Both the position numbers and the translations under genes were made by a program. From a virus (lineage: Duplodnaviria > Heunggongvirae > Uroviricota > Caudoviricetes), in IMG/VR virus record IMGVR_UViG_2778261574_000008, positions 1 to 32,400 of that record: a DNA stretch of 32,400 nucleotides; one strand, 5' to 3'. Shown piece after piece: positions 1 through 12,348 of the stretch (the stretch's first letter is position 1; each line of letters starts with the position of its first letter). The notes below the pieces were generated by a model. The model was not told the DNA's origin, did not search any database, and saw nothing but the letters and a program-made list of their open reading frames with translations.

Positions 1-1248
1 ATGGCACTGAATATTCCATTCAGAAATGCGTACTATCGTTTTGCATCCAGTTACTCATTTCTCTTTTTTATTTCCTGGTCGCTGTGGTGGTCGTTATACG
101 CTATTTGGCTGAAAGGACATCTAGGGTTGACAGGGACGGAATTAGGTACACTTTATTCGGTCAACCAGTTTACCAGCATTCTATTTATGATGTTCTACGG
201 CATCGTTCAGGATAAACTCGGTCTGAAGAAACCGCTCATCTGGTGTATGAGTTTCATCCTGGTCTTGACCGGACCGTTTATGATTTACGTTTATGAACCG
301 TTACTGCAAAGCAATTTTTCTGTAGGTCTAATTCTGGGGGCGCTATTTTTTGGCTTGGGGTATCTGGCGGGATGCGGTTTGCTTGATAGCTTCACCGAAA
401 AAATGGCGCGAAATTTTCATTTCGAATATGGAACAGCGCGCGCCTGGGGATCTTTTGGCTATGCTATTGGCGCGTTCTTTGCCGGCATATTTTTTAGTAT
501 CAGTCCCCATATCAACTTCTGGTTGGTCTCGCTATTTGGCGCTGTATTTATGATGATCAACATGCGTTTTAAAGATAAGGATCACCAGTGCGTAGCGGCA
601 GATGCGGGAGGGGTAAAAAAAGAGGATTTTATCGCAGTTTTCAAGGATCGAAACTTCTGGGTTTTCGTCATATTTATTGTGGGGACGTGGTCTTTCTATA
701 ACATTTTTGATCAACAACTTTTTCCTGTCTTTTATTCAGGTTTATTCGAATCACACGATGTAGGAACGCGCCTGTATGGTTATCTCAACTCATTCCAGGT
801 GGTACTCGAAGCGCTGTGCATGGCGATTATTCCTTTCTTTGTGAATCGGGTAGGGCCAAAAAATGCATTACTTATCGGAGTTGTGATTATGGCGTTGCGT
901 ATCCTTTCCTGCGCGCTGTTCGTTAACCCCTGGATTATTTCATTAGTGAAGTTGTTACATGCCATTGAGGTTCCACTTTGTGTCATATCCGTCTTCAAAT
1001 ACAGCGTGGCAAACTTTGATAAGCGCCTGTCGTCGACGATCTTTCTGATTGGTTTTCAAATTGCCAGTTCGCTTGGGATTGTGCTGCTTTCAACGCCGAC
1101 TGGGATACTCTTTGACCACGCAGGCTACCAAACAGTTTTCTTCGCAATTTCGGGTATTGTCTGCCTGATGTTGCTATTTGGCATTTTCTTCTTGAGTAAA
1201 AAACGCGAGCAAATAGTTATGGAAACGCCTGTACCTTCAGCAATATAG
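1..1248 (+). CDS. cscB: LacY-family MFS oligosaccharide:H+ symporter, most likely sucrose permease CscB (host gene flanking the prophage)
   Basis: 415-aa ORF, about 12 hydrophobic segments, length and residue pattern match the LacY/CscB/RafB family; the N-terminus MALNIPFRNAYYRF... is recalled as CscB. Family call is firm; the exact orthologue rests on memory. Confidence 0.75.
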   Translation: MALNIPFRNAYYRFASSYSFLFFISWSLWWSLYAIWLKGHLGLTGTELGTLYSVNQFTSILFMMFYGIVQDKLGLKKPLIWCMSFILVLTGPFMIYVYEPLLQSNFSVGLILGALFFGLGYLAGCGLLDSFTEKMARNFHFEYGTARAWGSFGYAIGAFFAGIFFSISPHINFWLVSLFGAVFMMINMRFKDKDHQCVAADAGGVKKEDFIAVFKDRNFWVFVIFIVGTWSFYNIFDQQLFPVFYSGLFESHDVGTRLYGYLNSFQVVLEALCMAIIPFFVNRVGPKNALLIGVVIMALRILSCALFVNPWIISLVKLLHAIEVPLCVISVFKYSVANFDKRLSSTIFLIGFQIASSLGIVLLSTPTGILFDHAGYQTVFFAISGIVCLMLLFGIFFLSKKREQIVMETPVPSAI

Positions 1249-4495: not shown

Positions 4496-4656
4496 ATCGC
4501 ATTCAGATATTTGTTTTGATTCACTGATGGAAACGAGTTTCGCTTAAGTAATTCCTCTCTCGATGGCATTGGCTTTACGCGTTGGCGAATAATCATTTCT
4601 GCCGGAAGAATGCCGGGATTGTATGCAAGTCCTCTCATGGTAAATTCCTCAGTCAT
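4474..4656 (-). CDS. Hypothetical small protein (60 aa from the internal start; the ORF is open up to 4791)
   Basis: ATG at 4654-4656 overlaps the stop of the 4649..4945 gene, suggesting translational coupling; fills the gap between two flanking genes. Confidence 0.4.
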
Positions 4657-4945
4657 TACTGATAGCGCCATAGCGTGAGCGGTAATTACGCAGGCGCGGG
4701 TCGATATATTCAGGGAAGTGGGTATATGTGGCTTTGCGGAATGGTCGGATTGATGTCTGGTAAATTCGCTCGCGTTCTTCTTTCTCTGCAAGCCATATAC
4801 AATGGCGAAATTCCTTTTCCTCTTTCGTTTCCTGCGGTAGCGACATTATCCGGTCGTAGTTTTTCCTGAATTTATCCAGCACCTCCGATACGGAATTGCC
4901 GGAACAGCGGCGCGGGTCATCCGCACCATACAGAGGCGCTGGCAT
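4649..4945 (-). CDS. Hypothetical 98-aa protein at the Abc (anti-RecBCD) position downstream of the recombination genes; possibly Abc2-like
   Basis: 98-aa ORF immediately downstream of erf/ssb, matching the size and position of P22 Abc2. Sequence identity not verified. Confidence 0.45.
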
Positions 4946-4968: not shown

Positions 4969-5352
4969 TTAGAAGGGAATTGAATCGTCGTATTCAGGAT
5001 GATTTTGATGATTGCTACTTTGTTGCTGTTGGCTGTTTCCTGAAGTTGCAAATCCAATCTTTGCATTCAGTAATTCAAGAGTGATTGATTGACCATTTTG
5101 CCCCTGATAAACATCAACCCTGATGTTTTCTCCGGTAATTTCAACAATGCCACCTTCAACAAGAACACTACAGTAGTAATCCACTTGCGCTCCCGGCTTG
5201 GCAAATACAACGGCGCTGTAGTTTGTCCATTCTTTCTTTTTTGTCTGGCGATCGTAATACTGAACGCCAGCACGGATGTTGAATCCGATATTTTCCCCAG
5301 CCTGAAACTCTCTTGCAGGTTTGTTTAGTCTTACAGTAATCGAATGTGCCAT
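4969..5352 (-). CDS. ssb: Single-stranded DNA-binding protein-like (phage SSB)
   Basis: 127 aa with a Gln/Ser-rich linker and an acidic C-terminal tail ending YDDSIPF, the hallmark SSB tail (DDDIPF); directly follows erf. Confidence 0.55.
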   Translation of the reverse strand: MAHSITVRLNKPAREFQAGENIGFNIRAGVQYYDRQTKKKEWTNYSAVVFAKPGAQVDYYCSVLVEGGIVEITGENIRVDVYQGQNGQSITLELLNAKIGFATSGNSQQQQSSNHQNHPEYDDSIPF

Positions 5353-5957
5353 TAAGCAATCGCTCCTTCTAATTCGTCTCGTCTGATGTTGTAAACGTCC
5401 TGCGCTTTGTGCTGCTCAGGTGTGCCTTCGAGCATCTTCCACGCTTTGGCGAACGCCTGTTTAAGCTCTTCTACGGTGTTTTTTTGCATTGCTGCGTCAG
5501 TGAATGCTTTTAGAACCTGTTCAGGTGTAGGTGATGGTTTTGATTGCTTTGCTGCTGCGTTCTGCTGATGTTTATGCTCGTCTGTATCTGCATCTTTCGC
5601 ATCATCAATGCCGAACAAACCATTGAGGCAATACTTGCGTGCATAAGAGCTTGTAGCTCCAGTAACTTGTGCAGAATCCATTCCTTTCTTGCTTTCTTCC
5701 TCTCGTGCAAGGGCAGTTGCCGTATGACTGTTTTCGCCATCGGTAATAGTTGCCGTGGCTTTCACGTAATACCGATCACCAATCAACACAACTTCATCGC
5801 TGATTGATAAAAACAGGCCATTCAGTAACGGCTTAACGCCTTCAAGAATGTCTTCGCAGCTTCTGTATTTATATTTACCGAATGAGTTGTACTGATTCTT
5901 TGGCGCGTTCAGATTCTCCTGAATAGCTGCCAGTCTTGCGTAAAATTCTTTGCTCAT
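5352..5957 (-). CDS. erf: Erf-family single-strand annealing recombinase
   Basis: ORF open 5352..5987; likely start at MSKEFYARLAAIQ (5957). Pattern resembles P22 Erf; sits in the recombination slot of the pL operon. Confidence 0.7.
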   Translation of the reverse strand: MSKEFYARLAAIQENLNAPKNQYNSFGKYKYRSCEDILEGVKPLLNGLFLSISDEVVLIGDRYYVKATATITDGENSHTATALAREEESKKGMDSAQVTGATSSYARKYCLNGLFGIDDAKDADTDEHKHQQNAAAKQSKPSPTPEQVLKAFTDAAMQKNTVEELKQAFAKAWKMLEGTPEQHKAQDVYNIRRDELEGAIA

Positions 5958-6058
5958 ATGATTGTTCTCAGAATGGACACGGCCCAAGGAAATAACGCTG
6001 ATTTAATACTTCGACTCGGGACAAGTTAAGGCATACCCGCATTCCTTCGCGGTCACCA

Positions 6059-6217
6059 TTATGGCGATACCAGAGAGCTTTCTGCGTGTACATGCGTCTC
6101 TGTAACTTGCTCTCCTTCACTGTGGTTGCAAGTGACATGAATATCTCCTTCGTTACCGATTAATTCTTTCATCTGACGAATGAATTCTTCGTCTGACCAG
6201 TTATCTGTAAAACTCAT
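6059..6217 (-). CDS. Hypothetical small protein at the kil position (52 aa from the coupled start)
   Basis: ATG at 6215-6217 overlaps the stop of the cIII-like gene; acidic small protein. Function unknown; the Kil analogy is positional only. Confidence 0.35.
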   Translation of the reverse strand: MSFTDNWSDEEFIRQMKELIGNEGDIHVTCNHSEGEQVTETHVHAESSLVSP

Positions 6218-9360: not shown

Positions 9361-9507
9361 ATGACAAAACAACTCAGTCCTTACCAGGACAAAATTCACA
9401 AACACATACTACGTGATCGCTTCCTGTCCAGCTTCAAGCAGCCTGGTCGATTCCGGGCTGAGTTGGAAAAAGTGAAGCTGATGCAGAAGGAGAAAGGTCA
9501 TGAGTAA
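9361..9507 (+). CDS. Hypothetical small protein (48 aa) between c1 and the replication genes
   Basis: Stop overlaps the ATG of the O-like gene; basic composition. Below the ORF-track cutoff. Confidence 0.35.
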
Positions 9508-10360
9508 TCTTGCAACCGTAACACATTTAAGGCCTTCACAACGGCCTGTGGAGCGTCGTGTGGCAGAAGTTGAAGATGGTTATACCCGTCTTGCAAATGC
9601 CCTGTATGAAGAGCTTATCGGCGCAGATTTAACTAAAAATCAGAGCAAGGTTGCCCACGCCATATGCCGTAAAACATACGGCTACGGTAAAAAGATGGAT
9701 CGCATCTCTGATAGTCAGTTAGCTCAAATTACCAGGCTGCCAAGACAGAAGGTAAACAAGGCCAAGAATGAGCTTATCGCGATGAAGGTTATCCTTCGCG
9801 AAGGCCAGCAAATCGGGCCTAACAAGAACATCGAGGAATGGCAAATCGAAGGGTGTCACTACTCTGGTGATAATGTCACTGCATTGGTGACAAAAAGTGT
9901 CACCAAAACGGTGACAGCGCTGTCACCAAAACAGGGACACACAAAAGAAACTATTACAAAAGAAAAAAGAAATAATAAAAACACTATGTCCGAAAGTGTT
10001 CGGACGGAGTGTGAAAAATCACCTGACCGTCACGAAGAAACCGACAAGGCATTCGAGGAAATATTCTGGTGTGCAGGCATGCGGAAAGCCGGGAAGAAAA
10101 ACGCAGCTTCGGCATTCAGAACACAGTTCAGGGAATGGCGTAAAACTACCAAGGGTACGGCAAGCGAGTTTGCCACGATGCTGGCAGAAGACATCGCATG
10201 CAGGAATGGTAAGCAGTTCGGATTCGACAGGTTGTTACCATCGAGCTACCTGAACGGTCAGCGCTGGAACGACGAAAAGCCAGAAACCATTCAACCACAA
10301 TCCAAACCATCATCCGCAATCACCGTATCGAAAACTGGCTACGTGTTTTTCGACAGGTGA
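9500..10360 (+). CDS. Replication initiation protein, lambda O-like
   Basis: 286 aa at the O position; N-terminal region resembles phage replication protein O; iteron-type origin embedded mid-gene. Confidence 0.65.
9851..10007 (+). repeat. Putative origin of replication inside the O-like gene (iterons plus A/T-rich tract plus palindrome)
   Basis: Repeated GTGTCAC / GGTGACA units at 9851-9933, an A-rich tract at 9934-9985, then inverted repeat GTCCGAA-AGTG-TTCGGAC at 9988-10005. Confidence 0.5.
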
Positions 10361-10363
10361 ACC

Positions 10364-10471
10364 ATGAAATCAAAAATCAAATCGCTACTGGTCGCTGGTT
10401 ATAACCACGGCTGGTTAAGTATTTCGTTTGTCGATTTCTGGTTTAAAAATCTCAATCTGAGGGAATCATGA
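10364..10471 (+). CDS. Hypothetical small protein (35 aa), translationally coupled to the primase-helicase
   Basis: Stop TGA overlaps the downstream ATG (ATGA). Very short; weak support. Confidence 0.3.
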   Translation: MKSKIKSLLVAGYNHGWLSISFVDFWFKNLNLRES

Positions 10472-12348
10472 CGCCAAGTGAACTTAGCGACCTGCTTTGG
10501 GCGCAGGTTGACAGGGTGGCTCCGCACCTGTTGCCAAACGGCAAGAAAGAGGGGCATGAGTGGGTTGCCGGTAACGTCAACGGTGACAAGGGAAACAGCC
10601 TTAAGGTCAACCTTAGCGGCAAGAAAAAATGGGCTGATTTCGCTGAGGGAGACGGCGGTGACATGCTTGATTTGTGGATGGCATGTCGTGGAATTAACCT
10701 GCATCAGGCTATGCAGGAAGCGAAAGCATTTCTCGGTATCAAGGATGACGATCACCATTTCGATGCCAGACGTGAGAAGAAATTCTCCAGACCTGATCGC
10801 AAGAAAATCGCCCGCTACGTTACCAGAACAGAATCCCATCTTGAGTACCTGCAATCGCGTGGCATATCGCCAGAAATCGTAAAGCGCTACGAGGTTGTCA
10901 GCGGCAAGGTGTGGAATGGAGAGCGAGAACTGGATGCTCTGGTGATTCCGTACAAACGCGATGGTGAGTTGTTGCAGGTCAAGCGAATCAGCACTGAGCG
11001 CCCGGACGGGAAGAAAGTCATTATGGCAGAAGGTGATTGCGAACCTTGTCTGTTCGGATGGCAGGCTCTGGACGCTGGCGTGAGGGCGGTTGTACTTTGC
11101 GAAGGCGAAATTGATTGTATGAGCTATGCGCAATACGGCATCTCGGCGTTATCCGTGCCGTTTGGTGGAGGGAAAGGCGCTAAGCAACAGTGGATTGAGT
11201 TTGAGTATCACAACCTCGACAGGTTTGAGGAAATATTCATCTCGATGGACGTTGATGATGTTGGTCGTGAAGCCGCAAGGGAAATCGCAAGCCGACTCGG
11301 TGAACATCGTTGCCGTCTTGTTACTCTGCCGTACAAAGACATCAACGAATGCCTGATGAACGGTGTTACCGAGGATGAAATCTGGCAGTACATCGGCACG
11401 GCATCCTACTTCGATCCTGAAGAACTCTACAGTGCGCGAGAGTTTTACCAGGACACTATCAACGCTTTCTACGGCAAGCAGCAGTATCTGTTTAATCCAC
11501 CGTGGGAATCTCTGGCAGATAAATTCCAGTTCCGTGAGGCAGAGTTGACGCTGGTCAATGGTGTGAACGGTCACGGAAAAACGGAGGTTGTCGGGCATAT
11601 GGCACTTGAGGCAATGCGTCAGGGTGTGAAGACGTGCATCGCGTCACTTGAGCTGAAGCCAGGCATTCTTCTTAAGCGACTTACCCGTCAGGCGACGTGC
11701 TGCAAGATGCCGCCAGTGCTGGAAATTGACTCTGCATTTAAATTTTATGACGAAAGACTTTGGGTGTTTGGCCTGACCGGAACGGCGAAAGCCGACAGGC
11801 TGATCGAAATATTCGACTACGCTCGCCGCCGATACGGCATCCAGTTATTCATCATCGACAGCCTGATGAAATGTGGCATAGGCGACGATGACTATAACGG
11901 GCAGAAGGCGTTTGTTGACTCGATTTGCGACTTCAAAAACAAAACAAACTCCCACGTCATTCTCGTTACTCACTCGCGAAAAGGAGACAGCGAAGAAAAA
12001 CCAACCGGGAAAATGGACGTAAAAGGCTCTGGAGCGATAACAGACCTGACAGACAACCTTTTCATCATATGGCGTAACAAGGCTCGCGAGAGAGCGTTAC
12101 AGAGAGTTCAGAGTGGTGAAAAAATGTCAGAGAAGGACGAACAGCTACTGGCATCTCCGGCATCTGTTTTGATGCTTGAAAAACAACGTAACGGCGAAGG
12201 TTGGGAAGGTGGTGTCCCGTTGTTCCTTGACGAGCAATCGCACCAGTTCCTGCAACTTGAATCAGGATCTCCATATAGCTACATCGCCAATATGCCGAAA
12301 TCGGAATATGACGAGGCGTGGCGACAGGAAAACGTGACGGAGTATTAA
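10468..12348 (+). CDS. Bifunctional DNA primase / replicative helicase (Toprim domain plus RecA-like NTPase domain)
   Basis: 626 aa; Toprim motif VVLCEGEIDCMSYAQ; Walker A GVNGHGKTE; Walker B-like LFIIDSL; occupies the P / DnaB-like gene 12 slot after O. Confidence 0.75.
   Translation: MTPSELSDLLWAQVDRVAPHLLPNGKKEGHEWVAGNVNGDKGNSLKVNLSGKKKWADFAEGDGGDMLDLWMACRGINLHQAMQEAKAFLGIKDDDHHFDARREKKFSRPDRKKIARYVTRTESHLEYLQSRGISPEIVKRYEVVSGKVWNGERELDALVIPYKRDGELLQVKRISTERPDGKKVIMAEGDCEPCLFGWQALDAGVRAVVLCEGEIDCMSYAQYGISALSVPFGGGKGAKQQWIEFEYHNLDRFEEIFISMDVDDVGREAAREIASRLGEHRCRLVTLPYKDINECLMNGVTEDEIWQYIGTASYFDPEELYSAREFYQDTINAFYGKQQYLFNPPWESLADKFQFREAELTLVNGVNGHGKTEVVGHMALEAMRQGVKTCIASLELKPGILLKRLTRQATCCKMPPVLEIDSAFKFYDERLWVFGLTGTAKADRLIEIFDYARRRYGIQLFIIDSLMKCGIGDDDYNGQKAFVDSICDFKNKTNSHVILVTHSRKGDSEEKPTGKMDVKGSGAITDLTDNLFIIWRNKARERALQRVQSGEKMSEKDEQLLASPASVLMLEKQRNGEGWEGGVPLFLDEQSHQFLQLESGSPYSYIANMPKSEYDEAWRQENVTEY

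Follow-up and report, generated by a model that had tools for sequence, protein, structure and literature searches.

A predicted, highly diverged SSB with an acidic tip lies between erf and abc2 in the recombination module of a lambdoid phage

To act, a phage annealase has to gain access to SSB-covered ssDNA, and how well recombineering systems transfer between hosts is limited by the SSB tip. In vivo, the lambda annealase Red-beta depends on the last ~9 residues of host SSB, to which it binds through its small C-terminal domain (review PMC11611040); lambda itself encodes no SSB. Phage HK620 has an SSB of its own (HkaK, DUF669, ‘SSB-2’), which stimulates annealing and recombineering by Sak4 and for which the last six residues, NDYPPF, are required (PMC5928155). 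Another SSB was described in a 2025 survey of 325 lambdoid phages (PMC12315714, Genome Research), where the predicted structure of HK97 gp40 was found to be like that of bacterial SSBs and the protein was named SSB-1b. There, gp40 is at most 15% identical to the SSB of ES18, which amounts to almost no sequence similarity, and its conserved tip is absent from the main-text discussion. Most records annotate this protein as ‘hypothetical’. The protein analysed here is 97-98% identical to the HK022, HK544 and HK97 gp40 proteins, and its SSB-like nature is already known, having been published as a structural prediction.

The window, by which we mean the whole 32,400-nucleotide stretch of IMG/VR record IMGVR_UViG_2778261574_000008 that was analysed, contains the recombination module from the leftward operon of a temperate phage of lambdoid/P22-like type, with the gene order small ORF, erf, ssb, abc2 (Table 1). 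It also encodes a CI-like repressor, an O-like initiator, a primase/helicase and a portal protein. An Rfam scan of the window returned no RNA family. A 1.6-kb region is 96-98% identical to Sf101, HK97, HK022, HK106, the mEp phages and several Stx-converting phages. The module resembles erf-abc1-abc2 of P22 in operon layout, in the homology of its P22-type Abc2 and in the Erf core, and differs in that P22 has the unrelated abc1 in the slot of the SSB gene. In the P22-like module of HK620, the SSB gene likewise sits between sak4 and abc2, and the HK022 and HK97 homologues share both the erf-ssb-abc2 context and the length of the window protein. Unlike lambda, the window phage has an SSB gene, and its module is without an exonuclease partner, a role filled by Abc2 and RecBCD. 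The erf stop and the SSB start overlap as TAATG, which makes translational coupling likely; the same 1-nt overlap of annealase and SSB genes occurs in the HK97, Yersinia phage and Serratia prophage loci. Upstream of erf, the 56-aa ORF sits where P22 has arf and ends in ...GPCPF, and its sequence is unrelated to P22 Arf. At the other end of the window, a 415-aa ORF (1-1248, plus strand) starts at the first base, on the strand opposite to the early-left genes; its sole match is PHROG 17800, which bears a function-less label (E=7e-182).

Table 1 Coordinates of the recombination module, its predicted protein parts and further features in the window
Feature	Position	Strand	Basis or remark
56-aa ORF directly upstream of erf	5968-6138	-	PHROG 1723, E=9e-36, labelled ‘recombinase’; HK97 gp42 homologue
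erf, 201-aa Erf-family single-strand annealing protein	5352-5957	-	ATG at 5957; stop codon 5352-5354; start MSKEFYARLA
Erf annealing core, aa 1-119	5601-5957	-	AF2 model, pLDDT about 80-89 over most of core
Erf flexible linker, aa 120-141, DEHKHQQNAAAKQSKPS...	5535-5600	-	pLDDT <50; low-complexity sequence
Erf C-terminal three-helix domain, aa 142-201	5355-5534	-	AF2, pLDDT about 80
TAATG stop/start overlap, erf/SSB gene	5350-5354	-	read from sequence; one shared base
SSB gene, predicted 127-aa divergent SSB (HK97 gp40/‘SSB-1b’ family)	4969-5352	-	stop 4969-4971
Predicted OB-fold domain, aa 1-103	5044-5352	-	high-confidence prediction, pLDDT about 94 for residues 1-100
Q/S/N-rich short disordered linker, aa 104-118	4999-5043	-	pLDDT <50 for residues 108-121
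Acidic tip PEYDDSIPF, aa 119-127	4972-4998	-	counterpart of E. coli SSB tip MDFDDDIPF
abc2, anti-RecBCD protein, third gene of module, next downstream of SSB gene	4649-4945	-	Pfam PF11043, E=4e-62; PHROG 656
O-like initiator and primase/helicase	9500-12348

The initial annotation had placed Erf and a 127-aa protein at 4969-5957; these coordinates are exact, and both ORFs were confirmed. Its assignment of Erf is solid by profile match and homology to P22 Erf. The protein matches Pfam PF04404 (ERF) over aa 5-143 with E=2.1e-44, at 151.6 bits against a cut-off of 25, and the Erf-like PHROG 155 with E=8e-58, and it is 75% identical to P22 Erf over residues 1-197, with 93% identity in the core (residues 1-125). 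In the AF2 model, the core consists of helices, a three-stranded sheet (49-85) and a long helix (95-115), and the C-terminal domain consists of helices 145-158, 162-175 and 181-200. Red-beta is arranged in the same way, its N-terminal annealing core being joined by a flexible linker to a small helical C-terminal domain. The C-terminal domain of Erf is discussed below as a candidate module for docking a partner or the SSB tip.

The second protein starts MAHSITVRLNK and ends ...NHQNHPEYDDSIPF in the translated ORF, and its similarity to canonical SSB lies below every curated threshold (Pfam, NCBIfam). No Pfam match was obtained at E<=1, PF00436 included, the single SSB match in NCBIfam has E=0.11, and no significant match was found among PDB sequences. 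In BLASTP against E. coli SSB (a query identical to the sequence of PDB 1eqq/4mz9), the tail alone aligns, residues 101-127 with 148-178 (E=0.002), in agreement with the initial annotation, which had described the N-terminal part as unlike canonical E. coli SSB. The same annotation had taken the tail to be the only clear family signature, and here it has to be corrected, because residues 2-127 also match PHROG 44 (‘single strand DNA binding protein’), with E=1.8e-27. Profile comparison by hhalign with E. coli SSB, at a probability of only 68%, places EWTNYSAVVFAK...LVEGGIVEITGE on EWH--RVVLFGK...LRKGSQVYIEGQ in the b3-helix-b4 region, so that the family-invariant W42 and F50 fall on E. coli W54 and F60, with W40 and W88 unaligned. 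The aromatic side chains of W40, W54, F60 and W88 stack on ssDNA in E. coli SSB. The family profile also touches yeast Rim1 and Streptomyces SSB (E about 0.3), and 5/36 family members reach PF00436 below threshold, the best with E=0.0038. Matches to Subtilase cytotoxin B-like proteins (E=0.01-0.26) were set aside as weak OB-fold noise. Taken at the level of sequence, the links of the family to SSBs appear weak but consistently placed.

A structure was predicted from an alignment of 36 family members (A1). Three strands are followed by a short helix (55-63) and further strands, which is OB topology, and the model is disordered from about residue 105 onwards. The arrangement b1-b3, helix, b4-b5 is that of the SSB/PriB-type OB fold; an assignment to T7 gp2.5-like SSB/annealases, which would call for the long extra alpha-helix of gp2.5 and for gp2.5 as closest structural neighbour, did not hold. 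Among the best 50 Foldseek matches in the PDB, almost all are bacterial-type SSB or PriB chains (E=3.5e-5 to 1e-3), and in the viral structure library every match bearing a functional name is an SSB. Scores of the structural alignments are moderate, with TM 0.4-0.55 and 13-18% identity, and point to a distant relative of SSB. Judged by the model, the 127-aa protein belongs to the fold class of bacterial-type SSBs, from which it has diverged strongly. It is like E. coli SSB in its predicted SSB/PriB-type OB fold, its disordered, Q/P/G-rich linker and its acidic tip ending in IPF, and differs from it in a linker of about 15 aa versus about 60 aa, as it does from the bacterial SSBs of PF00436 in the lack of a significant sequence match. 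With a pI of 7.8, the OB domain has no marked basic character, a point against the explanation preferred below.

The family to which the protein belongs is small and self-contained, with only 215 hits at E<=1e-3 in an HMM search of 1.84 billion cluster representatives. In 5.8 billion proteins we found 315 homologues, none of which (0/315) carries a precomputed Pfam SSB domain. Their layout is an OB domain of about 100 aa, a Q/P/G/N-rich linker that is hypervariable in composition and in length (about 15 to about 100 aa), and a tip of the form [FYW]-D-[DE]-x-[IP]-P-F. In 67 of 115 diverse full-length representatives, the very last two residues are P and then F, Y, L or W, and the others mostly have one extra residue or seem truncated. 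In IMG/VR, where the close relatives are exclusively 97-98% identical loci that inform on the stability of the module and not on diversity, the tip is intact in 80/80, the upstream gene is erf in 78/80, and abc2 follows the SSB gene in 80/80. With the tip intact in all of these and the motif kept family-wide, the tail is not a chance feature. The initial annotation had proposed an SSB with a docking tail and named an OB-fold prediction and conservation of the tail among homologues as checks; the fold is predicted over residues 1-103, the tail is kept by homologues, and both outcomes favour the SSB reading, which PHROG 44 also supports. The tip of the HK620 SSB family ends similarly in PPF or IPF, on a DUF669 protein that is not homologous to bacterial SSB.

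Individual tips vary around this pattern. HK97 gp40 as deposited ends in YDDSNPILI where the window protein has YDDSIPF, with essentially no difference elsewhere, and its gene (L002:2862-3251) has several small indels in the last codons. In one sub-group (Vibrio phage 1.149.O, L093:2501-3031; proteins P0127, P0155 and P0159), the tip is internal, being followed by a conserved extension (...DIPFAP[IV]GL... and some 12 further residues), and this extension would bury the terminal carboxylate normally recognised by SSB-tip readers. Some other members carry an extended host-like tip, EPPMDFDDDIPF, with the pattern EPPMDF(D/S)DDIPF, and in some the tip equals that of the enterobacterial host SSB over 11-13 residues (EEPPMDFDDDIPF; L003:3001-3465 and L095:2501-2983). 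Judged from these sequences, the host-identical tips suggest that the linker/tip segment has been exchanged with canonical ssb genes.

A tip so close to that of the host (YDDSIPF versus DFDDDIPF) raises the question of which partner it addresses. One possible reading is that the protein is a decoy or hijacker, whose SSB-like tip titrates or redirects host SSB clients (ExoI/SbcB, RecQ, RecO, PriA, the chi subunit of Pol III) and so protects phage recombination intermediates or redirects host enzymes, rather than assisting Erf directly. The identity with host tips in some relatives and the very short linker, which makes for a compact protein, would suit such a role, and the same role has been proposed for the phage SSB-like protein Bas52_0087, whose tip is FDDDIPF and which is linked to SbcB (bioRxiv 10.64898/2026.04.29.721553). 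We consider it unlikely as the primary function, as the two OB aromatics that the hhalign comparison places on ssDNA-stacking residues of E. coli SSB are invariant in the family, which would argue for genuine ssDNA binding, and the tight, repeated linkage to annealase genes of three families points to a phage partner. The decoy reading is compatible with the explanation that we prefer, a diverged SSB that coats ssDNA and works with Erf, and competition of the phage tip for host SSB clients, an idea already raised in the initial annotation, is plausible within it; the linkage to annealases is what a decoy leaves unexplained.

This linkage is also seen in other lineages. Directly upstream of the SSB gene lies a gene for Erf in the siphovirus Vibrio phage 14E30.2 and in a Serratia prophage (with the same 1-nt overlap and an SSB tip WDDEPPF), and a gene for a Rad52/22-type annealase in Yersinia phage 06.16-1. 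In Klebsiella KLB22, Rtp and PsgS01F, a RecE-like nuclease is followed by Erf and then by the SSB gene, Erf being confirmed by Pfam in KLB22 and Rtp and taken from the record annotation only in PsgS01F; Rtp belongs to the Drexlerviridae, and KLB22 and PsgS01F are unclassified. In Vibrio phage K394, the upstream genes encode a PD-(D/E)XK nuclease and then a Sak4-like AAA_24 protein. Vibrio phage 1.149.O and Aeromonas phage Avpd1 have no recognisable annealase directly upstream of the SSB gene. An annealing-protein gene thus directly precedes the SSB relatives in most sampled phage lineages, and these neighbourhoods make the SSB-1b family a recurrent partner of annealing proteins of at least three classes.

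The same neighbourhoods bear on two further explanations. First, the protein could be a replication SSB that serves the O-like initiator and primase/helicase of the phage, with its place next to erf a mere matter of module layout. The window does encode an initiator and primase/helicase of its own, and the acidic tails of the T7 and T4 SSBs dock replication proteins. Such a role is nevertheless improbable because of operon position and annealase linkage: the gene is in the leftward recombination operon, outside the replication module, with a one-base overlap with erf, and it follows an annealase across lineages with very different replication genes. Most lambdoid phages moreover replicate without an SSB of their own, 177 of 246 Rec modules having none (PMC12315714). 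Second, the protein might not act as an SSB at all and be an OB-fold adaptor that acts on RecBCD together with Abc2, taking the functional place of P22 Abc1, whose gene occupies the same slot between erf and abc2 with the same start/stop overlap. We regard this as very improbable, because the family also occurs in modules without abc2 (Rtp-like, Vibrio and Yersinia phages); the sequence of the protein is unrelated to that of P22 Abc1, and a stand-in for Abc1 would leave the full SSB layout with its conserved tip unexplained. P22 Abc1 was also considered as a truncated relative of the SSB, given the shared slot and the equal length of 285 nt of the ‘ssb’ gene of phage HF4s, and was rejected, the sequences being unrelated and the HF4s gene frameshifted. 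The HF4s ‘ssb protein’ (L001:2965-3249) is a frameshifted 94-aa remnant.

The explanation that we prefer, with a probability of roughly 70%, is a recombination module in which a diverged SSB coats ssDNA and its tip recruits Erf or engages host proteins. By analogy, its most likely task would be to coat ssDNA in the Erf/Abc2 pathway, the tip recruiting Erf and/or host SSB clients. Tip-mediated recruitment of Erf is proposed from the precedents of HK620 SSB with Sak4 and of Red-beta with host SSB, together with the layout of Erf; Sak4, a RecA-like ATPase, is unlike Erf. In this pathway, RecBCD modified by Abc2, or replication, would expose ssDNA, which would be coated by phage SSB produced in step with Erf through translational coupling. 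The exposed tip of the SSB would then recruit Erf or hand the DNA to it, most plausibly via the three-helix C-terminal domain, and could also engage the usual host readers of the SSB tip, after which Erf would anneal the strand to its complement. For the 127-aa SSB itself, ssDNA binding, oligomeric state and the contact between tip and Erf are properties that we infer; what the analysis shows is the identity of the genes, the predicted fold, the conserved tail and the linkage of the genes.

The C-terminal domain of Erf, to which this model assigns the contact, has a distribution of its own. With tblastn of the phage collection, relatives were found at the C-termini of other annealases: the domain shares 52% identity with the C-terminus of a Sak4/AAA_24 protein of Erwinia phage Eho59, 49% with that of RecT of Enterobacter phage Tyrion and 35% with that of the Rad52-type annealase of the Yersinia phage, compared with 41% for the C-terminal domain of P22 Erf (annealase loci L007:1805-2668, L010:1730-2671, L003:2297-3001 and L008:2501-3118). 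When the 64-aa domain itself was the query of a database search, all matches were short pieces of this one protein, uninformative about other architectures. Going by these alignments, the three-helix domain of Erf is a shuffled module that is also found on RecT, Sak4 and Rad52-type annealases. The difference between a core that is 93% identical to P22 Erf and a C-terminal domain at 41% places a mosaic joint inside erf; the gene downstream of this joint in P22 is the unrelated abc1, not an SSB gene. In Tyrion, phiV10 and Eho59, which also have the Erf-type C-terminal domain, no SSB gene is annotated among the genes flanking the recombination module. Its occurrence in such modules means that the domain is not specific to SSB-1b, and the distribution fits, without proving it, a partner that all of these hosts share, for which the host SSB tip is a candidate. 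Similarity to the C-terminal domain of Red-beta is not detectable (hhalign probability 0.5%; BLASTP E=0.088), so no homology is claimed, only a similar layout.

A more far-reaching hypothesis can be built on this domain. The YDDSIPF tip may be read by the C-terminal domain of Erf as a portable ‘SSB-tip reader’ that has been shuffled among four unrelated annealase cores (Erf, RecT, Sak4 and Rad52-type), in which case SSB-1b would be both a private loading platform for the annealase and a competitor for host SSB clients (ExoI, RecQ) on phage recombination intermediates. We put this forward as a tentative idea, with the odds against it as a whole. The shuffling of partner interaction domains was explicitly left unanalysed in the survey of lambdoid phages (PMC12315714).

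For the preferred reading, a diverged SSB acting with Erf, the locus offers a practical opening: Erf and its compact cognate SSB form a ready-made pair that could be assayed like Sak4 and SSB of HK620. Phage SSBs are, moreover, increasingly recognised as triggers of bacterial defence. Biochemistry on the SSB-1b family would fill a gap and not overturn current views, and further work on the Erf/SSB-1b pair and on the portable C-terminal domain would be reasonable.

Two observations concern the C-termini of other Erf proteins. A profile of the annealase C-terminal domains (A2) matches residues 133-179 of ‘Gp77’, a recently solved 227-aa protein present in 48 chains (PDB 9y6u/9y9c), with E=9e-6. 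The window’s Erf alone gives no match with Gp77; the part of Gp77 that A2 matches is similar to the C-terminal domains of Erf from Rtp and KLB22, both of which are in A2. The Erf proteins of Rtp, KLB22 and PsgS01F (L006:2205-2855, which is Rtp48, L005:2257-2955 and L094:1706-2356) have short aromatic tails of their own (...QQIDTF, ...GEFRDF), which may be docking motifs for the adjacent RecE-like nuclease.
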